DNA from: Oscillospiraceae bacterium
GTDB lineage: Bacteria; Bacillota; Clostridia; Oscillospirales; CAG-382
DNA length: 64,000 nucleotides
Direction of reading: 5' to 3'
NCBI GenBank assembly: GCA_015063885.1
Contig: SVTH01000007.1
Coordinates: 41,566 to 105,565 of the forward strand
This document shows, piece by piece, positions 4,438 through 63,070 of the stretch. A program made the translations under genes and the position numbers. The notes under the pieces are model-generated. The model was not told where the DNA came from. It did no database searches and saw only the letters and a list, made by a program, of their open reading frames with translations. The stretch's first letter is position 1. Each line of letters starts with the position of its first letter.

Positions 4438-5654
4438 AGAATGGGATCCGGCGGCTTCACCTGGGGAGGCGGCTGCTCGCCCACCTCCAAGGGGAGATCC
4501 ATCCCGATATTTTCCAAAACCGTAGCGCTTACGTTCAATACGTAAGCGTTTTGTATTTTGTCAAAAAGAAAGGTCTCCTCCCAGGCAAGCACCTCTCCCA
4601 GGGAGGCCAGCCATTGCTCCCGCTCAAGCCTTGCGTCGGCTTTCAGCATGGCCTCCGTGAAGGGCACGGTCTCCTTTTTGTATTCCCGATAGGTCACCTT
4701 GGTCACCGTCACGGGGGTCTCGATAAAGCCCAACAGCATCACGGGGGTCTCTTCCACCACCGTATCGAACCGCAAATACGGGCTTTCGGAGCTGACGGCG
4801 AACTCCTTCCCCAAAACGGACACCACCCGCCGTACCTTTTCCCGCCCGGTGTAGTGCTTCACCTCCCTTTCCACGGGGAACACAGCGGAATGGGTCTCGT
4901 ACACCCGGGCAAGAACCTCTCCCCGTGCGTGGTGCACCCGATACACGTTCCGCTTCCCCACGGAAAAGGCGGAGATCAAAATCTGCCCCGCCTCCACCAC
5001 CTCCCCGGGGGAGACGATGACGGTGCCTGCGGCAGATTTTGCGGAGACGATGATCCCGTCGCGGGTGGCCGCCACGTTGCAGTACCCCGACGTGTCCTGC
5101 CGCGGGGGCTCGTGGACCCGCTCCAGAACCTCCACTTGAATATGGGTGCCCTTCACGTTGATGGCCACGGAGGAAAGGTCGTGAAACTGCAAAAGAAAAC
5201 GGTTCTGCACCTCCAAAACGGGGATGGCGGGGATGTAGCTCCCCACGGCCACCCCTTGGGCCTCCAGAGCGTCCAGAATGACTCCGTCGGGCACCGTCGT
5301 ATTGCCGTTCACCGTCACCTTCCAAACGAACAGCTCACTGTAAAACAAAAGGGCCAGCCCCAAAAACAGCCCCAGCAGGAGCCCGGGACGCTTTTTGTAT
5401 TTGGCCGCAAAGAAGGGGAGCCCCCGCGTCTTCACGATCTCCCCCGGGATCCCCGCCTCCCGTGCGTTGTTCAAAAGCAGCTCCCCGCAGGAAAGGGTGG
5501 TCTTCAGATACCAAACCCCGTCCCCGCCGCAGAGGCTCCAGAACAGCACCCGATGGGCGGTCAGCCGCCGCAGAAAGGGCAGGGGATCGACGCAGGACAG
5601 CTTCACGGTGTATTCCCCCGTGATGGGGCGTAACAGCTTATACACGATCGGCAT
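4434..5654 (-). CDS. yqfD: Sporulation protein YqfD
   Basis: 406 aa with one central TM segment. Typical YqfD layout, placed directly downstream of yqfC. Confidence 0.85.
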   Translation of the reverse strand: MPIVYKLLRPITGEYTVKLSCVDPLPFLRRLTAHRVLFWSLCGGDGVWYLKTTLSCGELLLNNAREAGIPGEIVKTRGLPFFAAKYKKRPGLLLGLFLGLALLFYSELFVWKVTVNGNTTVPDGVILDALEAQGVAVGSYIPAIPVLEVQNRFLLQFHDLSSVAINVKGTHIQVEVLERVHEPPRQDTSGYCNVAATRDGIIVSAKSAAGTVIVSPGEVVEAGQILISAFSVGKRNVYRVHHARGEVLARVYETHSAVFPVEREVKHYTGREKVRRVVSVLGKEFAVSSESPYLRFDTVVEETPVMLLGFIETPVTVTKVTYREYKKETVPFTEAMLKADARLEREQWLASLGEVLAWEETFLFDKIQNAYVLNVSATVLENIGMDLPLEVGEQPPPQVKPPDPIL

Positions 5655-6963: not shown

Positions 6964-7048
6964 GCGGCTGTGGCGGAATTGGCAGACGCGCACGTTTGAG
7001 GGGCGTGTGGAGTACTCCGTATGGGTTCAAGTCCCATCAGCCGCACCA
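6964..7048 (+). tRNA. tRNA-Leu (anticodon GAG), CCA encoded
   Basis: Hand-folded. Acceptor GCGGCTG/CAGCCGC, anticodon stem CACGT/GCGTG with loop TTGAGGG, long variable arm, T-arm TGGG-TTCAAGT-CCCA, 3' ACCA. Confidence 0.9.
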
Positions 7049-20936: not shown

Positions 20937-21018
20937 AGATCAGAAGGGTCCGATTCCCTCCATTGTCATATTCCAAAAAGAAAAGACCCACCAAGGGTCT
21001 TTTCTTTTTGGAGCGGGC

Positions 21019-21092
21019 GACGGGAATCGGACCCGCACGGTCAGCTTGGGAAGCTGAAGTTCTACCACTAAACTACGCCCGCGTATGTAAGA
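21019..21092 (-). tRNA. tRNA-Gly (anticodon CCC), CCA encoded
   Basis: The reverse complement GCGGGCGTAGTTTAGTGGTAGAACTTCAGCTTCCCAAGCTGA...CGCCCGCTCCA folds as a cloverleaf. The anticodon loop is TTCCCAA. Confidence 0.9.
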
Positions 21093-55771: not shown

Positions 55772-55842
55772 TACGTTATTTGTCAGGGACGCAATCACTC
55801 ATTCGTACATTTATATCTTATTTACTACAAAGAGGTGCAAAA

Positions 55843-57441
55843 ATGAAGAGAATTCGTTACCATTCCGCAACGGAGCTTTTGGAAAAGGCGCGCCAAAAGA
55901 TGGTTCCGTTGCCGAACCAATGGGCGGCACAGAAGAGGATTGCGTCCCTAATTGCCATGCACTTGAGCAAGCTGCAAGCCCTTGATAAAGGCGCAGACCC
56001 GGGGGAGCTGGTCAGCTGCTCGGCGTTCTTGGTTGGTCCCACCGGCAACGGGAAGACCTACATCATCAAATGTCTGGCAGAGGCCTGCGGTCTGCATTTC
56101 GCTGCCATTGACTGCACGTCCATCACCCAGGCAGGTGTCCGTGGGAAAAATCTGGGAGACAATCTGGCCGCCATCAAAAGCGAGAACCCTGCCTTTTTCG
56201 AGGGTGGAATTCTTCTCTTGGATGAAGCAGACAAGGCGTTCTACAAAGGCGACCCGCACTACGATGCCTACTCGCCGATGCAGGAATTTTTGAAGCTGAT
56301 GGAGGGCGGGGAGTACTCCTTCCGGTCGGATGGCATAAGTGGAACCGTCAATCTGGATAAGACCCTCATCCTATTGGCGGGCGCTTGCGCCAACATCGTA
56401 CATATTCTAAAAAGGCGGTACAATCCGCGCCCCGTCATTGGCTTTTCGTCGCAAAGCCCCGGGTCTGAGATTGACATTGAGAACTACGGCCCGTACGTCA
56501 CCCTTGATGACCTGATTGCTTACGGCATGATGCCCGAGCTTGCCTCTCGTATCAACACAGTCATTGCGATTCCCAAAATTGACGAGGCAGGGTATCAGCG
56601 GTTACTTATCGACACCGCTAAGACATCTGCGTTGAATCGTTTTCGCAATCAGTTCGCCATGCGGGGTGTCGCACTGGATATCGCTCCCGAGGCGGTTCAA
56701 AGGATTGCCGAACTGTGTGTTGAGAGAAACGTGGGGGCTCGCTCTATCAACGCCATTCTCTTCGAGAAGCTTTCTGAGGCTTACAGCGCCGTAGACGATA
56801 CCCCAACCCACGGCAGAGTCATTCTTCAAACAGACGAACTTGGAGAACTCCAAACAGTGTATCAGGAGGGGGAGCGTCTTTCCTTCCCGATGTTCACGGA
56901 ACGAGCCTGCTTTGATGGGGATTTCTCCATCAAGGACAAACTCCGGGATGAAGACTCCATCAATCGACTTTGCGATGATATATGCGCAAAGGCGTCCTTG
57001 GAAGACGTGTCTGCCGAGCCATTACTCTATTACTTCCTGCAAACAGCGTGTCGCTACATGGCGGAGGAGGTTCGCCCGGAGGACAGGAGCATGGTCAACC
57101 TATGCAGGCTCGCTGGCGCCACGGAGAAACCGGATAGTTCTAAAGCCGGTAAGTCTCCCTTTGACATCGTCTGCGAGGACTACCTTTTGAAAATCATCTC
57201 CAAGGCGGAGGACAGTTTGAAGCACCAAGAGGAGGAAGCTCCTCTGTCGCGTGTATCGAAAAACCGGATGTGGGCGACCTCCAAAGACCATTTCAAGTAC
57301 GCCATTTTTAATCATTATTACTCGGCGTTCTGCCGGACGGAGAGACAGCACGCAGACGTACCAAAGGTGTTGGCGGAAGCCATCGATACTGCAAGGAAAC
57401 ATTACATATCCAATAAAAAAGAAAAGAGCAGCACTATATAA
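55843..57441 (+). CDS. ClpX/HslU-like AAA+ ATPase lacking the zinc-binding domain, with a ~180-aa C-terminal extension
   Basis: Walker A GPTGNGKT, Walker B ILLLDEADK. PELASRIN...IPKIDEAGYQRLL and VGARSINAIL align with ClpX sensor and arginine regions. Confidence 0.75.
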   Translation: MKRIRYHSATELLEKARQKMVPLPNQWAAQKRIASLIAMHLSKLQALDKGADPGELVSCSAFLVGPTGNGKTYIIKCLAEACGLHFAAIDCTSITQAGVRGKNLGDNLAAIKSENPAFFEGGILLLDEADKAFYKGDPHYDAYSPMQEFLKLMEGGEYSFRSDGISGTVNLDKTLILLAGACANIVHILKRRYNPRPVIGFSSQSPGSEIDIENYGPYVTLDDLIAYGMMPELASRINTVIAIPKIDEAGYQRLLIDTAKTSALNRFRNQFAMRGVALDIAPEAVQRIAELCVERNVGARSINAILFEKLSEAYSAVDDTPTHGRVILQTDELGELQTVYQEGERLSFPMFTERACFDGDFSIKDKLRDEDSINRLCDDICAKASLEDVSAEPLLYYFLQTACRYMAEEVRPEDRSMVNLCRLAGATEKPDSSKAGKSPFDIVCEDYLLKIISKAEDSLKHQEEEAPLSRVSKNRMWATSKDHFKYAIFNHYYSAFCRTERQHADVPKVLAEAIDTARKHYISNKKEKSSTI

Positions 57442-57517
57442 TGCTACAAAACTTAGGAGGAGAAGCACACATCAGCCATCAATTTCCCCAAACAACCAAA
57501 CTTAAGCACGACAACGA

Positions 57518-57702
57518 TTGAAAAAATATGACGTTAGTTGTATACTGCGTACGCTACACAATTCTAATCTACAGTTGTCGGGAACCACTTTGGTAAAAGG
57601 TGCGTTCTCTTTTCGTCATACCCGGCAACTGGTACGAATTGTGTAGCAACAATGAGGAGAGCACTTTTTCGGTGTGCTCCCTCGTTGGAGCACACTTTTT
57701 TT
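57518..57702 (+). promoter_or_regulatory. Promoter plus riboswitch-like structured leader with alternative antiterminator/terminator
   Basis: TTGAAA-N17-TATACT. Nested helices GCTACACAATTC/GAATTGTGTAGC and AGTTGTCGGG/CCCGGCAACT. GAGCAC..GTGCTC overlaps the terminator GTGTGCTCC..GGAGCACAC+T7. Confidence 0.55.
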
Positions 57703-57727
57703 ATTCTCAAGAAAGGGACACCTAAGT

Positions 57728-59155
57728 ATGAACACCAAAAAAATGAAGAAACTGTGTTTTGCCGCTACAGCTTGCTTGCTATTCGCCTTCGTTACCCTGT
57801 TGGCAAGCTGTGCTCCGGATAACACTCCCGCCTCCTCTTCTGCGGAAAGCTCGAACAACGAAAATTCCGAGTTATCCAAACACGAAAGCACTATCTCTGA
57901 CGAAAGTTTTTCGCCATCATCCTCCGAAACCGAATCCGGCTCCTCCTCAGATGCTTCCGACGAGGAATCTTCTGAGCCTTCCGATGACATTTCAACAGAG
58001 CCATCGGCTTCTCCGGAAGAATCCGATGTCACATCTTCACAAGACAATTCACCGGAACCCTCCAGCGAACCCGGCGAACAGGAGAACTCAGAAGACATCT
58101 CAGAGCCTCCTGTACACGTGCACGAATGGGAAGAAGCCGATTGCGAAAACCCAAAAACCTGCGTGACGTGCGGCGAGACGACCGGCACTGTCGCAGGACA
58201 TGATTGGCAGATTGCTACGTGCACGTCTGCTAAGACCTGTGCGACCTGCGGAAAGACCGAAGGCTCTGCCAAGGGCCATAATTGGAAAGCCGCCACCTGC
58301 GTCTGTGCTAAGACCTGCCAGGTCTGTGGGGCAACCGAAGGGGAAGCCAACGGACACGATTGGCAAGGGGCCACCTGCACAATCGCAAAAACGTGCAAGA
58401 CCTGTCAACAAACAACCGGCAACGCGAACGGTCATCAATATCTCGACGGCGTATGTGAAACATGCGGTGAAAGGGACCCTGACTACCAAGAACCGATTAC
58501 ATATTCGCAAGGTTTGGCCTATCAAGTAAATGAAGATGGAAAAACCTGCTCGGTCAGTATCGGAACGTGCACCGACGCTGACATAAGCATCCCGCCGACA
58601 ATCGACGGATATATCGTTACTGAAATTGGCGAAGATGCCTTTGCAAACTGCGCAAACATAACAAGCATCACCATTCCGGATAGCGTGACCACTATCTCTT
58701 ATTATCCCTTTGCACGTTGCCCAAATTTGGTTTTTACGCAATACGAGCAAGGGCTATATTTAGGAACCAGCACCAATCCATACCATGCATTGGTGGGGAT
58801 TGCCTCTGATGACACGGGTTCTGTCGTTTCGTTTAAGGTTCACGAAGATACTAAGTGTATTGCCGACAACACGTTCGGCGGCTGCTTTAATATGGTGAGC
58901 ATCGAGCTTCCGAATGGCATAACTCGTATTGGACGCCGTATGTTCGAAGACTGCGAAAGATTAGAAAGCGTGCACGTGCCCGGCAACGTGACACAGATTG
59001 CAGCTGGAGCATTCCAGGGTTGCCGCAACTTAGAGCGTGTAACCTTTGAAGGAACGGTAACCCAGTGGGACGTCATCACCAAGGGCAATTTCTGGAACGA
59101 CAACGTTCCCGCCGCCGAAGTGGTTTGCTCTGATGGCACTGTGAGTCTGGCGTGA
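57728..59155 (+). CDS. Lipoprotein with an S/E-rich linker, four Cys-rich ~24-aa repeats and BspA-type leucine-rich repeats
   Basis: Lipobox LLASC. Repeats GH.W..ATC...KTC..CG.T.G at about 58112-58474. LRR segments (ITSITIPDSVTTI..., ITRIGRRMFEDC...). Confidence 0.75.
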   Translation: MNTKKMKKLCFAATACLLFAFVTLLASCAPDNTPASSSAESSNNENSELSKHESTISDESFSPSSSETESGSSSDASDEESSEPSDDISTEPSASPEESDVTSSQDNSPEPSSEPGEQENSEDISEPPVHVHEWEEADCENPKTCVTCGETTGTVAGHDWQIATCTSAKTCATCGKTEGSAKGHNWKAATCVCAKTCQVCGATEGEANGHDWQGATCTIAKTCKTCQQTTGNANGHQYLDGVCETCGERDPDYQEPITYSQGLAYQVNEDGKTCSVSIGTCTDADISIPPTIDGYIVTEIGEDAFANCANITSITIPDSVTTISYYPFARCPNLVFTQYEQGLYLGTSTNPYHALVGIASDDTGSVVSFKVHEDTKCIADNTFGGCFNMVSIELPNGITRIGRRMFEDCERLESVHVPGNVTQIAAGAFQGCRNLERVTFEGTVTQWDVITKGNFWNDNVPAAEVVCSDGTVSLA

Positions 59156-59226
59156 ATTTCCAGCTTCTGCTCACCATGACGCAAAAGCAATAGTCTTAAG
59201 AGCACACAATAAAATGGAGCACGTAT

Positions 59227-60168
59227 ATGAAAGAATTTTACATAGTTGACCTGGTCAAGAATCTGGTACACAACAAGAATCTCTTTGCGTTGACGTATCT
59301 GTTTTTGAATCTCTTCGTGGTTTGCGGGTTGTTTTTCGTGTTATTCGGCGAATCCTTTGCCGGCGTTATAATAGGATTGGTTATATATCTGATTTCGGCA
59401 TTGATTGGTCTGTCTCCCGTGGGGGAATGGTTCTTACGGCGTTCACACAAATGCATTCCCATAGAGCGTTATGAGGACCGAAGCGCTGGGAAACGGCTTT
59501 CTGCGCTTTTTGGCGAGGTTTGTTCTTCGGCTGATAAAAGCGGCATTTCTGTACGTGAGAAGGAGAAAATCTCTCTTTTTATTCACGAGGGCGATGACCT
59601 GAACGCCTTTGCGATTGGTCGCAAAACCATTTGCGTAACGAGCGCACTTTTAGAACTTCCTGATGATGAAATCAAAGCCATCTTCGGGCATGAGCTGGGG
59701 CATCTGACTACGCACGATACGGACTTGGTGCTCCTTGTCTCGGCAGGTAACTTTATCGTTTCTGCCATCGTGACAGTTTTCAAACTGTTCGTTATGCTTT
59801 TCCAGCTGATAGTTACTATCGCAATCGCTTTCTGCGGAGACGAGGGAGCGATAGTTAACGTCTTCACGAAAGTTGCGAGCTTCCTCTCGCTGGTTCTGGT
59901 TAACTTCGTGATGTTCGTTTGGACGAAAATCGGCATTTGGATGGTAATGAAAACCTCCCGTAATGCAGAATTTGAAGCAGACGCCTTTTCCTGTCGCCTT
60001 GGCTACGCCGACGGTTTGCTTTCATTCTTCCAGAGGATATATAATGACGAACCGACGTATAGCGTGAAAAAGGGCTCCGACCTCTTTGCTGCGCTTTCGG
60101 ATTCCCATCCCGCGACAGCCCACCGGGTACGGAAGGTGGTTGAATACGTGAAGCGTACGACAGTGTAA
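59227..60168 (+). CDS. M48-family (HtpX-like) membrane zinc metalloprotease
   Basis: HELGHLTTHD (HEXXH), four TM helices, downstream E...D motif (NAEFEADAF). Confidence 0.8.
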   Translation: MKEFYIVDLVKNLVHNKNLFALTYLFLNLFVVCGLFFVLFGESFAGVIIGLVIYLISALIGLSPVGEWFLRRSHKCIPIERYEDRSAGKRLSALFGEVCSSADKSGISVREKEKISLFIHEGDDLNAFAIGRKTICVTSALLELPDDEIKAIFGHELGHLTTHDTDLVLLVSAGNFIVSAIVTVFKLFVMLFQLIVTIAIAFCGDEGAIVNVFTKVASFLSLVLVNFVMFVWTKIGIWMVMKTSRNAEFEADAFSCRLGYADGLLSFFQRIYNDEPTYSVKKGSDLFAALSDSHPATAHRVRKVVEYVKRTTV

Positions 60169-60259
60169 CACGGATACTTGTTAGTCGGCGAAACGAACCA
60201 CCCCTAAAGATATTGCAAGCAAAAACAGGGCCGATTGCAACTCTACTTTCCCACTCCCG

Positions 60260-60343
60260 TTTTGACATAAAAACCCATTTTGCTTCATTTTCCTGTAAAA
60301 AATAGCGCCAGCTTGATTGAAAATGGGATTTTTATGTCAAACG
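60260..60343. repeat. Long imperfect hairpin (22-bp stem, 38-nt loop)
   Basis: TTTTGACATAAAAACCCATTTT ... AAAATGGGATTTTTATGTCAAA(C). One bulged base. Confidence 0.8.
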
Positions 60344-60384
60344 TTCTCTCTGAAAATCCAAAAAATGCCCCGAAAGGATTGACT

Positions 60385-60802
60385 GTGCGCCCAGCATGGG
60401 CGATAACTTGGTGGAGAAAGTCCACTATACGCTCAGTAGCAGGAAGTGTTAGCCGAAGCAAGGGTGTACATCGCAAGGTGGAATCCGAAGGAAGCCGTGT
60501 CGAAAGGCAGCGGTTGAGCTCGCAGAAGTCAGCTCCACTCGTAGTACCAAAGGAGTGACTAGCCACCACGAAGGGAGGGAAGAAGTTGTGTGAAATTAAA
60601 GTCGAAAGATTGTGCTTGAAAACAGTTGCTCTGCAGAGATTGAATGACTGAGGGTAGGTTGGGAACCGAGAGTCGAAGTCAAGAGTGTTTAGCAATCATC
60701 AAAAGAGGAGTCGCAAGCGACGACTTATCGAAGCACCGCGTACGGTTCCGTACGCACGGTGTTGCGGGAGGACGGGGGGAGTCGCCCCCCCACCAGCCCG
60801 AT
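60385..60802 (+). ncRNA. ORF-less group II intron-like ribozyme, class C (IIC)-like, ~418 nt
   Basis: 5' GTGCGCCCAGCATGGGCG. Domain I-like GTTAGCCGAAGCAAGGGTG...GGAATCCGAAGGAAGCC. Domain V AGCACC-GCGTACG-GTTC-CGTACGC-AC-GGTGTT at 60732-60763 (AGC triad, AC bulge). A G6/C6 domain VI-like hairpin with an unpaired A. No room for a reverse-transcriptase ORF. Confidence 0.75.
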
Positions 60803-61342
60803 TGGCGTTTTTTCTTCGTCACACTTCATGCGCACCTCATACTCGCTCGACTTCTGTTGCTTTTTATCGGATGGCAATCTTTCAAAAAACAACCATCGGC
60901 TTTTTATAAGTGGAGGGATTTCTACAGAACTCTTTCGACCATCTGCTCGTGCTGTCTATTAAGAGCCGGGGCATAAGAAAATTGCCATTGTCGCAAGGTC
61001 TGATATATTTCGCAACAAACTTATGGTATAATCCAGCATTCGTATAATATAGCAAAATACGTTTCGATAAAGTTTCTTAAAACAGGTGATTTTTTGTCAA
61101 AAAAACACAAAAATGAAAAAAATGGTCAGCGCCTATTGAAAACGAAAAAGTATTATGATAAAATAGTACATCTGGTGTTATATCGTGAAGCAACTCAAAT
61201 ATACATAAAATTACACTTTAGCACAGGCTTCGACAATATGGGGTCGAAGATGTTGTCCAAACGAAAGTTCCTGTCTAACCGGTGTCTTTCTAAAACAACA
61301 TCTCTGCATTTGTGCAGCCATGAGCAAGATTGTGAGGAGAGA

Positions 61343-61924
61343 ATGAATTTACCTGCTATTGAAGTCGCGAAATACCTTATACGTTTGTATTTTCAGTCGA
61401 GTATTCGATATCATTGCACATTGACAAAAATTGAGAAGCTGATGTTTATTGCAGAATTGGTATGTTTAAAGAATGATGCCAGTCTATTTTCCGAAGATAT
61501 TTTAGACAAGAATTGTGGTGTCGGGATTGACGGGTTGGAGCTCGAGTTGCCAAACGAAATTTTAAATATTCGGGAACAAAACCAAGACAATGACACAGGC
61601 GAAACGGATATCCCCATTGGAGATGTTACATTTTGCGGAAATTCTGTTCCGGATTTGTTTCAAATTGGCGCGGATATTTCGTTTGAACCGTCTGTTGAAC
61701 GTTTGTTGGTTGATGTATTCAGATATTTTGGGAATTATAAAGCGAGAACATTGGGTAGTCAAATCGATGAACTTAAGCCTTACATAATCAGAACCTTAGA
61801 CCCGTTGACCCAAAACAAAAGCATCGACAGAAGTATAATCAAAACCGGCTTTGATACTATTCCAGTCTCAAAACTCGAGAATAATGAAATTTATATCTTC
61901 GCAAAAAACATTAAGGAACTTTAA
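61343..61924 (+). CDS. Hypothetical protein with weak Panacea/DUF4065 (SocA-type antitoxin)-like N-terminus
   Basis: AIEVAKYLI...CTLTKIEKLMFIAELV resembles the (A)KYFL..ITNLKLQKLLYYAQ motif. GAGGAG RBS. The listed 61094 TTG start was rejected. Confidence 0.5.
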   Translation: MNLPAIEVAKYLIRLYFQSSIRYHCTLTKIEKLMFIAELVCLKNDASLFSEDILDKNCGVGIDGLELELPNEILNIREQNQDNDTGETDIPIGDVTFCGNSVPDLFQIGADISFEPSVERLLVDVFRYFGNYKARTLGSQIDELKPYIIRTLDPLTQNKSIDRSIIKTGFDTIPVSKLENNEIYIFAKNIKEL

Positions 61925-61927
61925 ATT

Positions 61928-63046
61928 ATGGCTACTTGTTCCGCCAACGATTCTCTCTTGAAATTTTGCAATTGCGTCTTTGAAGTTATGGATACCTGTT
62001 CTTCAATTAGTGAATTGCCAAAGTGTTGCAAAGATTTTATTGACACATGCTACGTTTCGTTCGGAGAAATCAACCAGCGCTTTGATGCCGCAGCGTACTT
62101 GTCGCTATCTCTTTACATAGATGAATTATTCAACAAGCAAATAAACACAGATATTCGTGACAAAAATGTTTCTACTTTAAGATTTGATACCGATAGTTTG
62201 TACGACATGACTTTGTTCATGGAGGAATACTGCAAAGCCAATCAAATTTGCGATTTTCCCAAAACCATTTTAGAGGACATTTGTTCATTGATTCTTCAGC
62301 GGTTTCGCTCTTTCAAGAATATGGTTCTTTACTCTCAAAATGTGGCTAATAAGCAGTCTAGGGCGCATGTTGCCTCTATGACTCGTATTGTTGAATCTCG
62401 CCAGAACGAGTTGCTGAAACAAATTGACACTCGTTTTAAAGACACACAACAAGCAGTCGATGTTTTGGAAAGCGAACTGGCGGCTCGGGAAAAAGATGCG
62501 CATGACCATAGCATTACTATTCTTGGTGTTTTCTCCGCAATTGTCTTAGTTTTTAATGCAGCAGTTAGTTTTTTTACGTCTGCATTTGGTGCATTCAGCA
62601 ACGCCAGTATATATAAAATACTGACGATTCTCTTGATTATCGGCGTGATTTTTGTTGGCGCAATGATGGGGCTGTTTTTCTATCTTGATAGAATTCGCCC
62701 TTCCGACAAATTCGAGTTTCTTAAGAACAAAAAAGAGAAGCAATCCTCAAGTGAAATGATATATGTTGTAGATAAAGCCGAAAGCGGCGTTAGAATATTA
62801 AAACTGCTTTTGCCTTTTTTGATTACATTAGTGATATTGATAATAATGCTTCTTATCGTTCTTTACTCGTGGGAAGTAGGCTTAGTAGAGGCAAGGAATC
62901 AATCTCTTTTTGCACAAGAATCTAAAACGGATTCTGAAACGGGTTTTGAAACGGATTCTGAAACGGATGTAGTAACATCCATTCAAGAAGAGTTGTCGCA
63001 GCCGGAAGACGAATCTGAAGAGACAACTTCTGCAATTGCCGAATGA
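61928..63046 (+). CDS. Membrane protein (coiled-coil region, 3 TM helices, acidic tail), unknown function
   Basis: 372 aa. Starts 4 nt after the previous stop, suggesting coupling. Confidence 0.6.
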   Translation: MATCSANDSLLKFCNCVFEVMDTCSSISELPKCCKDFIDTCYVSFGEINQRFDAAAYLSLSLYIDELFNKQINTDIRDKNVSTLRFDTDSLYDMTLFMEEYCKANQICDFPKTILEDICSLILQRFRSFKNMVLYSQNVANKQSRAHVASMTRIVESRQNELLKQIDTRFKDTQQAVDVLESELAAREKDAHDHSITILGVFSAIVLVFNAAVSFFTSAFGAFSNASIYKILTILLIIGVIFVGAMMGLFFYLDRIRPSDKFEFLKNKKEKQSSSEMIYVVDKAESGVRILKLLLPFLITLVILIIMLLIVLYSWEVGLVEARNQSLFAQESKTDSETGFETDSETDVVTSIQEELSQPEDESEETTSAIAE

Positions 63047-63070
63047 CAAGTAAAACTATCTTTCAAAATA

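Follow-up and report, generated by a model that had tools for sequence, protein, structure and literature searches.

The window, by which we mean the whole 64-kb stretch of DNA analysed, carries at 55780-60168 a conserved, co-oriented trio of genes encoding an AAA+/ClpB-D2-small ATPase (553 aa), a BspA-type LRR_5 protein (493 aa) and an M48 peptidase (59227-60168; Pfam PF01435). The same AAA+/LRR_5/M48 order is found in contigs L003-L010 and, in part, in L141. The element described here occupies positions 60385-60802 of the plus strand (418 nt). It starts 217 nt past the stop of the M48 peptidase gene, on the same strand, and was recognised by blastn, nhmmer and Rfam comparisons as derived from a group IIC intron. 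Rfam was run over the whole 64-kb window at gathering thresholds and, in a permissive search, over 60100-61100. At gathering thresholds the whole window returned two tRNAs only and no group II family; these two, tRNA-Leu(GAG) at 6964-7048 (+) and tRNA-Gly(CCC) at 21009-21082 (-), are the only RNA genes that Rfam and ARAGORN place in the window.

A first-pass annotation had read the segment as an ORF-less, compact IIC-like ribozyme and had seen no reverse transcriptase (RT) gene anywhere in the window. The absence of an RT was borne out, as a tblastn search of the 64 kb with a IIC RT gave a best E value of 0.43 and no other group II element was found with Rfam. A coding explanation of the segment was also considered and rejected: three open reading frames overlap the element, Pfam matches none of them, and the metagenome gene callers called none.

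Group IIC ancestry and termini of the element

Nucleotides 1-113 of the element share 77-90% identity with the 5' ends of group IIC introns (blastn, E down to 3e-34), and matches to this part were found in at least 299 plasmid records and four phage-labelled contigs. The closest 5' match (87-90% identity over the first 113 nt) is L001, a canonical ltrA-encoding IIC intron of the Peptoclostridium acidaminophilum plasmid NZ_CP007453.1, which lies directly after a terminator hairpin and has its annotated ltrA about 300 nt downstream. An nhmmer profile built from 37 distinct canonical IIC 5' regions aligned 60385-60498 with profile positions 1-116 (91.2 bits, E = 1e-29), placing the GTGCG at 60385 on profile position 1. 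At the opposite end, nt 366-405 of the element match domains V and VI (DV-DVI) of the metagenomic intron L136 (88% over 41 nt, E = 8e-9, blastn), the terminal CCCGAT at 60797-60802 aligns with 32-36 relatives, and the first 3'-exon base is T in the element as in its IIC relatives. Both ends chosen in the first-pass annotation, GTGCG at 60385 and GAT at 60802, thus align with bona fide IIC termini, and the IIC ancestry proposed there is upheld by the 5' identity, the profile match and the DV-DVI match. The parallel that it had drawn with the Oceanobacillus iheyensis intron is consistent with the L001-type introns, which are the sequences compared here. At the level of sequence, the element is of group IIC ancestry and belongs to an O. 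iheyensis-like clade. The plus strand folded more stably than its dinucleotide shuffles (z = -2.55), which was not the case for the minus strand (z = -0.71). The likeness in length between the 418-nt element and the engineered O. iheyensis delta-ORF construct was dismissed as coincidence only.

The two permissive Rfam matches of the element are collinear on the plus strand and lie below threshold. One is to RF02001 (group-II-D1D4-3) at 60467-60514 (+), where 122 of 170 model positions are skipped and the score is 24.1 bits (gathering score 32); the other is to RF00029 (domains V-VI) at 60731-60802 (+), with 22.2 bits (gathering score 40). RF01998 (D1D4-1) gave no match at E <= 10 in 60100-61100. 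Full-length relatives score 130-153 bits with RF02001, which covers the ID arm (L001, L136, L137 and L139), 48-68 bits with RF01998, which covers domains II and III (DII-DIII), and 44-49 bits with RF00029. The intron L135, described below, has no RF02001 hit and scores 57.6 bits with RF01998 and 49.3 bits with RF00029. The comparison set comprised about 100 canonical RT-encoding introns obtained from a pattern scan of genome contigs.

Two observations concern other introns met during this comparison. In L001 from about position 4843 onward, and likewise in L138 and L069, DV is followed by GTGGTG and then GTGTGCCATGAAAGGCA..., after which come an RF01999 (D1D4-2) match and another ltrA. A further group II intron thus begins at the expected DVI of the first, giving a tandem or nested arrangement. 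IIC 5' fragments also occur in two phage-labelled human faecal contigs, at L013 884-969 (MT836030.1) and L014 3001-3207 (MT837010.1), with neither an RT nor a DV within 3 kb. Both are further fragmentary intron copies, and in L014 the ID arm is complete (RF02001, 62 bits).

Loss of a domain I-II block

The retained 5' part of domain I (DI) extends over 60385-60497 (+) and comprises GUGCG, the basal 5' strands, IA-IC and the ID(i) hairpin (blastn, nhmmer), with the kappa/zeta motif GGAAUCCGAAGGAAGC at 60480-60495 (+). Forty canonical 5' sequences define 52 columns with a conservation of at least 95%; the window departs from four of these (60415 T>A, 60468 C>A, 60475 G>A and 60486 T>C) and L135 from none. 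Beyond this part, approximately 216 nt of domains I-II are absent from the element according to nhmmer, MAFFT and junction comparison, a feature that lay outside the first-pass annotation. The nhmmer alignment passes directly from profile position 116 (window 60498) to 317 (60511), so that about 200 canonical positions are set against 12 nt of the window. A second, collinear nhmmer match follows, in which profile positions 317-358 correspond to window 60511-60552 (E = 1.3e-3).

Alignment by MAFFT with L135, L136, L137, L138 and L001 placed the deletion junction at approximately 60497/60498, where the window reads GAAGGAAGCCG joined to TGTCGAAAGGCAGCGGTTGAGCTCGCAGAAGTCAGC. The stub hairpin GCCG-UGUC-GAAA-GGCA-G-CGGU occupies 60494-60514 (+). 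This GAAA-capped stub is the apical hairpin of DII; its part UGUCGAAAGGCA is homologous to that hairpin in full-length relatives, and the junction strings of the window compared with those of L139 and L136 are consistent with the assignment. The 3' strand of DII and the J2/3 motif CGCAGAAGUCAGC follow at 60515-60533 (+; nhmmer, blastn), with the AGC at 60531-60533, and the J2/3 region is 80% identical to L139 over 45 nt (E = 1.4e-5, blastn).

In the relatives, the block that is missing from the window holds the ID distal arm, the 3' strands of the basal DI helices and the 5' half of DII, as well as a loop of the form CUGC-NNNN-CAAG. The NNNN of this loop is complementary to the last four nucleotides of the 5' exon (AAAA/UUUU in L136, CAAA/UUUG in L139 and UGCG/UGCA in L138), and the loop is therefore identified as EBS1. 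This EBS1-IBS1 covariation is clear across the closely related L136, L138 and L139 at three different insertion sites, which shows that the clade is actively mobile in these communities. The element itself has no complete domain I, that is, no ID distal arm with EBS1/EBS3 and no closed basal helices, and no ID-arm homology was detected elsewhere in it, including the spacer at 60559-60730, by nhmmer even at E <= 1000. The string AGUC at 60527-60530 was considered as an EBS1 for the 5' exon ...GACU and was rejected because it is part of the universally conserved J2/3 motif GAAGUCAGC.

Domain III and the domain IV position

The J2/3 motif is followed at 60534-60558 (+) by a degenerate domain III (DIII) remnant, UCCACUC-GUAGUA-CC-AAA-GG-AGUGA, assigned by alignment and giving no RF01998 match. 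This remnant keeps an AUAGUA-like motif (GUAGUA) and is without the GAAG partner strand and the long stem. Between it and DV, in the position of domain IV, lies an unassignable spacer of approximately 170 nt (60559-60730, +) with a small hairpin GAGUCGCAAGCGACGACUU at about 60708-60726; the domain IV of only a few tens of nucleotides described in the first-pass annotation is thus an underestimate. Comparison of the spacer with full-length introns by blastn gave noise only, as did tblastn of 60541-60740 with three related RTs, and the candidate explanations of the spacer as a rearranged ID arm or an RT remnant were rejected on these nhmmer, blastn and tblastn results. Three likenesses noticed by eye fell below significance and were discarded: a Shine-Dalgarno (SD) sequence plus 'VKLKSKDCA' resembling an RT N-terminus in the spacer, a second J2/3-like string at 60675-60700, and a CCCAG/UUGGG closing helix.

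Domains V and VI

A DV homologue with damaged catalytic features is located at 60732-60763 (+), and the DVI homologue with the 3' end (...CACCAGCCCGAU) at 60764-60802 (+), including a GC-rich apical hairpin at 60773-60790 (+). These assignments come from the RF00029 match and a column comparison with 32-36 relatives for DV, and from the blastn match to L136 together with 32 relatives for DVI. Domains V and VI were extracted from 32-36 distinct relatives with a strict-set filter that accepted either an AGC or a CGC triad. The triad is CGC in 36/36 sequences of the strict set, and also in every in-register sequence of the permissive set. It is followed in the relatives by five more base pairs below the bulge, a 2-nt bulge (AC, AT or TT), a 3-bp upper helix and a loop of GAAC or GATC. 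Their DVI ends in CUCCUAC[CU]CGAU, with a bulged A 7 nt from the end in 32/32.

The 3' strand of the window DV, its AC bulge (60752-60753) and its overall length fit the register of the relatives without gaps. In this homologous register the triad is CAC (60734-60736, with A at 60735) rather than CGC, a C x A mismatch occurs at 60739 x 60756, and the loop (60745-60748) is GUUC rather than GAAC or GATC. The 'textbook' DV of the first-pass annotation is therefore not confirmed: the AC bulge agrees with the family, but the RF00029 score, triad, mismatch and loop all depart from it. That annotation had placed an AGC triad at 60732-60734, which represents C>G and G>A changes relative to the ACCGC of the relatives; in the Watson-Crick register that it implies (a 6-bp lower helix, the AC bulge and a 7-bp upper helix) the triad is 3 bp, not 5, from the bulge. 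Judged from these alignments, neither DV register reproduces the conserved geometry. In the DVI strand CACCAGCCCGAU, the invariant branch A is replaced by G at 60796, and U has given way to A at 60792 and 60795. The A one position upstream of G 60796 faces another A, so the unpaired A formerly assigned to DVI is not present as such. Of the catalytic core (the DV triad, J2/3 and DIII), only the J2/3 AGC survives.

A deletion junction shared with other introns

A scan of metagenome contigs for the short architecture returned one further locus, L135. The same pattern had 0 matches on viral contigs, and a pattern consisting of the kappa/zeta 16-mer, a 215-245 nt gap and a loose DV mask likewise had 0 matches on viral contigs. 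The 119 genome-contig matches to that pattern were considered as ORF-less IIC introns and rejected; all are chance mask matches in J2/3-DIII of ordinary RT-encoding introns, with a best DV pairing of 9/13.

L135 is a IIC intron on the minus strand of its contig (1766 to 65) with an intact 461-aa RT, canonical DV and DVI, a branch A and an upstream hairpin. Full-length relatives found by protein search and contig look-ups include L139 and L140 (RT 99% identical to that of L135) and L136 (RT 87%). L135 is 96-98% identical to L139 but lacks exactly 216 nt of it. The missing block is bounded by GAAGGAAGCCA and GTATCGAAAGGTAC, which repeat each other imperfectly in direct orientation (CC[AA/CG]TA[G/T]CGAAAGG). 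The window shares its junction, GAAGGAAGCC(A/G) joined to (G)U(A/G)UCGAAAGG, with L135 and with two further copies, L144 and L145. An assembly artefact was rejected as the source of the L135 deletion, as the same junction is present in L144 and L145, two independent k141 assemblies from other samples. All three copies (L135, L144 and L145) have the same 5' flank. The sequence of L145 is 1.5% divergent from that of L135, and its 3' flank is not the same. Their flanks gave no evidence of movement of the short form.

L135 and the window copy are only about 79% identical. Given this value and the 96-98% identity of L135 to L139, independent and recurrent deletion at a repeat-flanked hotspot is more parsimonious than a single event, and the direct-repeat junction may mark a site at which introns of this clade are prone to deletion. 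Between the two deleted copies there are 7 synonymous and 9 non-synonymous changes, giving a pN/pS of 0.35 from 16 differences only, compared with 0.08-0.09 when they are set against full-length copies. These ratios hint weakly that constraint on the deleted form is no longer complete.

Insertion site and surrounding cassette

A terminator-like hairpin is a known target of IIC introns (PMC4424553), and each of the six relatives examined is preceded, at a distance of 0-7 nt, by a hairpin of -19 to -37 kcal/mol. No strong hairpin was found within 43 nt 5' of the element; the nearest (arms at 60261-60281 and 60321-60341) stops 43 nt short of it, and the fold of the final 60 nt of the 5' exon is weak (-8 kcal/mol). 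The upstream inverted repeat at 60261-60341 has 21-nt arms (TTTGACATAAAAACCCATTTT / AAATGGGATTTTTATGTCAAA) and a 39-nt loop, and its left arm is 77% complementary to 61081-61102, the start of the next gene. The region 60317-60367 additionally resembles 61077-61115 (71-72%). This likeness could reflect a repeated operator- or promoter-like motif, or chance similarity of A/T-rich DNA.

Ten metagenome contigs from different samples encode an identical M48 protein, and in all of them a 932-nt region, the element included, is 100% identical to the window. There is therefore no population variation with which constraint could be tested, and since the identity is equal in the flanking DNA it is uninformative on selection. 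The 88.5%-identical contig L141, with a 90% M48 orthologue, matches the window collinearly as far as the M48 stop and again from 63071. Between those points L141 (2437-4238) has different genes on the opposite strand and no copy of the element. The corresponding part of the window, approximately 60164-63070, contains the hairpin region, the element and two genes (276 and 372 aa) without a confident Pfam family, and from about 60850 onward it is AT-rich (32-42% GC against 45-58% in the flanks). This break in collinearity therefore assigns the intron remnant to a swapped cassette. The cassette is located upstream of an RHS/YD-shell protein gene. No empty site, that is, no clean presence/absence pair, was found among the contigs compared: the ten contigs are identical, L141 has the swapped cassette, and 62-64% M48 orthologues are unrelated downstream.

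Probable origin and inactivation of the element

We consider the element very probably to be an inactivated copy of a mobile group IIC intron of the O. iheyensis-like type. What is observed directly is the homology to IIC introns, the absence of parts and the substitutions at invariant positions; from these we infer the course of events given next and the loss of activity. A full-length RT-encoding IIC intron would have inserted here or in an ancestor of the gene cassette. One deletion would have removed the 216-nt block reaching from just after the kappa/zeta motif of DI to the apical hairpin of DII, taking with it the exon-binding loop EBS1 and the strands needed to close domain I. Another would have removed essentially the whole RT/maturase ORF in domain IV, and point substitution would then have taken the DV triad G, a DV stem base pair, the DVI branch A and most of DIII. 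Two internal deletions followed by point decay would be the simplest account, and the remnant would now be passed on as non-coding sequence that separates the M48 protease gene from its downstream neighbour. As the element has no exon-binding site, closed domain I or maturase, and its active site is damaged, it would be expected neither to splice nor to retrohome.

Among the possibilities raised in the first-pass annotation, a decaying intron agrees with the missing block, the lost RT and the changed invariant positions. A compact self-splicing ribozyme, either trans-mobilised or co-opted, is not supported, given the absence of the DI/DII block, the unrecognisable DIII and the substituted triad G and branch A. 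No covariance-model match rose above threshold, and domains I-VI could not be folded consistently, both of them outcomes that the first-pass annotation had named as refuting its reading. On this comparison the element is no compact, complete ribozyme and is ordinary in kind. Some observations do count against simple inactivation. The same junction occurs in the otherwise intact L135, L144 and L145, and the short form could thus be a defined variant rather than random damage; in addition, the 5' 113 nt are well conserved (87-90% to L001) and the plus-strand fold is stable.

Several other explanations were weighed against the same evidence. A functional ORF-less compact IIC ribozyme, either HYER-like or mobilised in trans by a maturase/RT elsewhere in the genome, would account for the lack of an ORF, the IIC ancestry, the correct termini, a length near that of minimal IIC ribozymes and the plus-strand z score of -2.55, and HYERs provide a precedent as natural ORF-less IIC introns (PMC11754743, PMC12990946). 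Such a ribozyme is nevertheless extremely improbable here, as the element is without an ID arm, EBS1 or target-recognition site and has no DIII match, its triad G and branch A are mutated, the three Rfam modules fall far below threshold, and its 5' junction has no terminator hairpin. HYERs, by the account given in PMC12990946, require their 6-nt target-recognition site to pair with the substrate. The identical junction in the window, L135, L144 and L145 would be expected if the deletion had happened once and the short form had then spread as a heritable 'mini-intron' lineage, mobilised in trans by full-length relatives, and L135 does keep an intact 461-aa RT, a canonical DV and the branch A. 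We regard such a lineage as very improbable. On either side of the deletion L135 and L139 agree at 96-98%, but L135 and the window copy are only about 79% identical, so descent from one deletion would need extensive gene conversion. Moreover, L135, L144 and L145 lie on one 5' flank and so show no sign of movement, the pN/pS of 0.35 against 0.08-0.09 hints at relaxed constraint (16 differences), the scans gave one further metagenome locus and none on viral contigs, and reverse splicing is not expected without EBS1.

Two proposals assign the short RNA a role other than splicing. The position of the element on the M48 strand, 217 nt after the stop, its several stable helices, the GC-rich DVI hairpin with a T-run 17 nt later, and the 100% conservation of the region in all contigs with this M48 allele would suit a co-opted structured RNA that acts as a 3'-end stabiliser, terminator or regulator for the M48 transcript or the downstream cassette. 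This proposal appears quite unlikely, because a terminator scan found no plus-strand terminator in or just after the element, the 100% identity reaches the flanking DNA equally, and the 90% M48 orthologue in L141 is without the element and has its own terminator hairpin. The 216-nt DI/DII deletion may alternatively be regarded as a recurrent structure- or repeat-directed event that makes a 'mini' IIC RNA, kept for a non-splicing role, although we judge this improbable. The event would be, for example, RT template switching or slippage between two CGAAAGG-containing hairpins, and the role might be that of a decoy or regulator of the family's RT/maturase, or of a structured 3' UTR.

An inactivated intron copy remains our preferred explanation, and it carries a caution for annotation: a 418-nt ORF-less IIC-like element resembles a minimal ribozyme or HYER candidate until its relatives reveal a gutted copy. 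For annotation of this genome, the element marks a former retroelement insertion in a swapped, AT-rich cassette, which adjoins the AAA+ / LRR / M48 gene set and an RHS-type toxin gene. Its wider interest lies in the same deletion junction in two lineages only about 79% identical, which points to a deletion hotspot.

Comparison with known systems

The element shares with O. iheyensis-type IIC introns (L001, L136 and L139) the GUGCG...CCCGAU termini, the DV 3' strand, the AC bulge and the shape of DVI. It differs from them in having no RT/maturase ORF, in the absence of 216 nt of DI/DII, in its degenerate DIII, in CAC for CGC and G for the branch A, and in not lying directly after a terminator hairpin. 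The same junction unites it with L135, L144 and L145, yet L135 keeps the 461-aa RT, DV, DII-DIII, the branch A and the upstream hairpin, none of which the element retains.

HYERs are described as IIC introns without an ORF that cleave DNA or RNA by hydrolysis (Liu et al., Science 2024, as presented in PMC11754743 and PMC12990946). In these accounts their catalytic core is complete and a 6-nt target-recognition site is retained; HYER1 is 637 nt long. The element is likewise a natural IIC derivative of a few hundred nucleotides with no protein-coding region. It is set apart, as far as those descriptions go, by having no target-recognition loop of the EBS1/EBS3 type, which falls within the deleted block, and no intact DV or DIII.

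Truncated or inactivated bacterial group II intron copies have reportedly been catalogued in the surveys of Dai and Zimmerly. Such copies are common in bacteria (Zimmerly & Semper 2015, PMC4424553), and the element combines the clear homology and the lost splicing and mobility parts that define them. Like them, it keeps recognisable ends and core motifs, has lost the intron-encoded protein and essential ribozyme parts, and is intergenic in a variable, mobile-looking region. The usual copy is truncated at its 5' or 3' end, whereas the loss in this element consists of two internal deletions with both termini kept.
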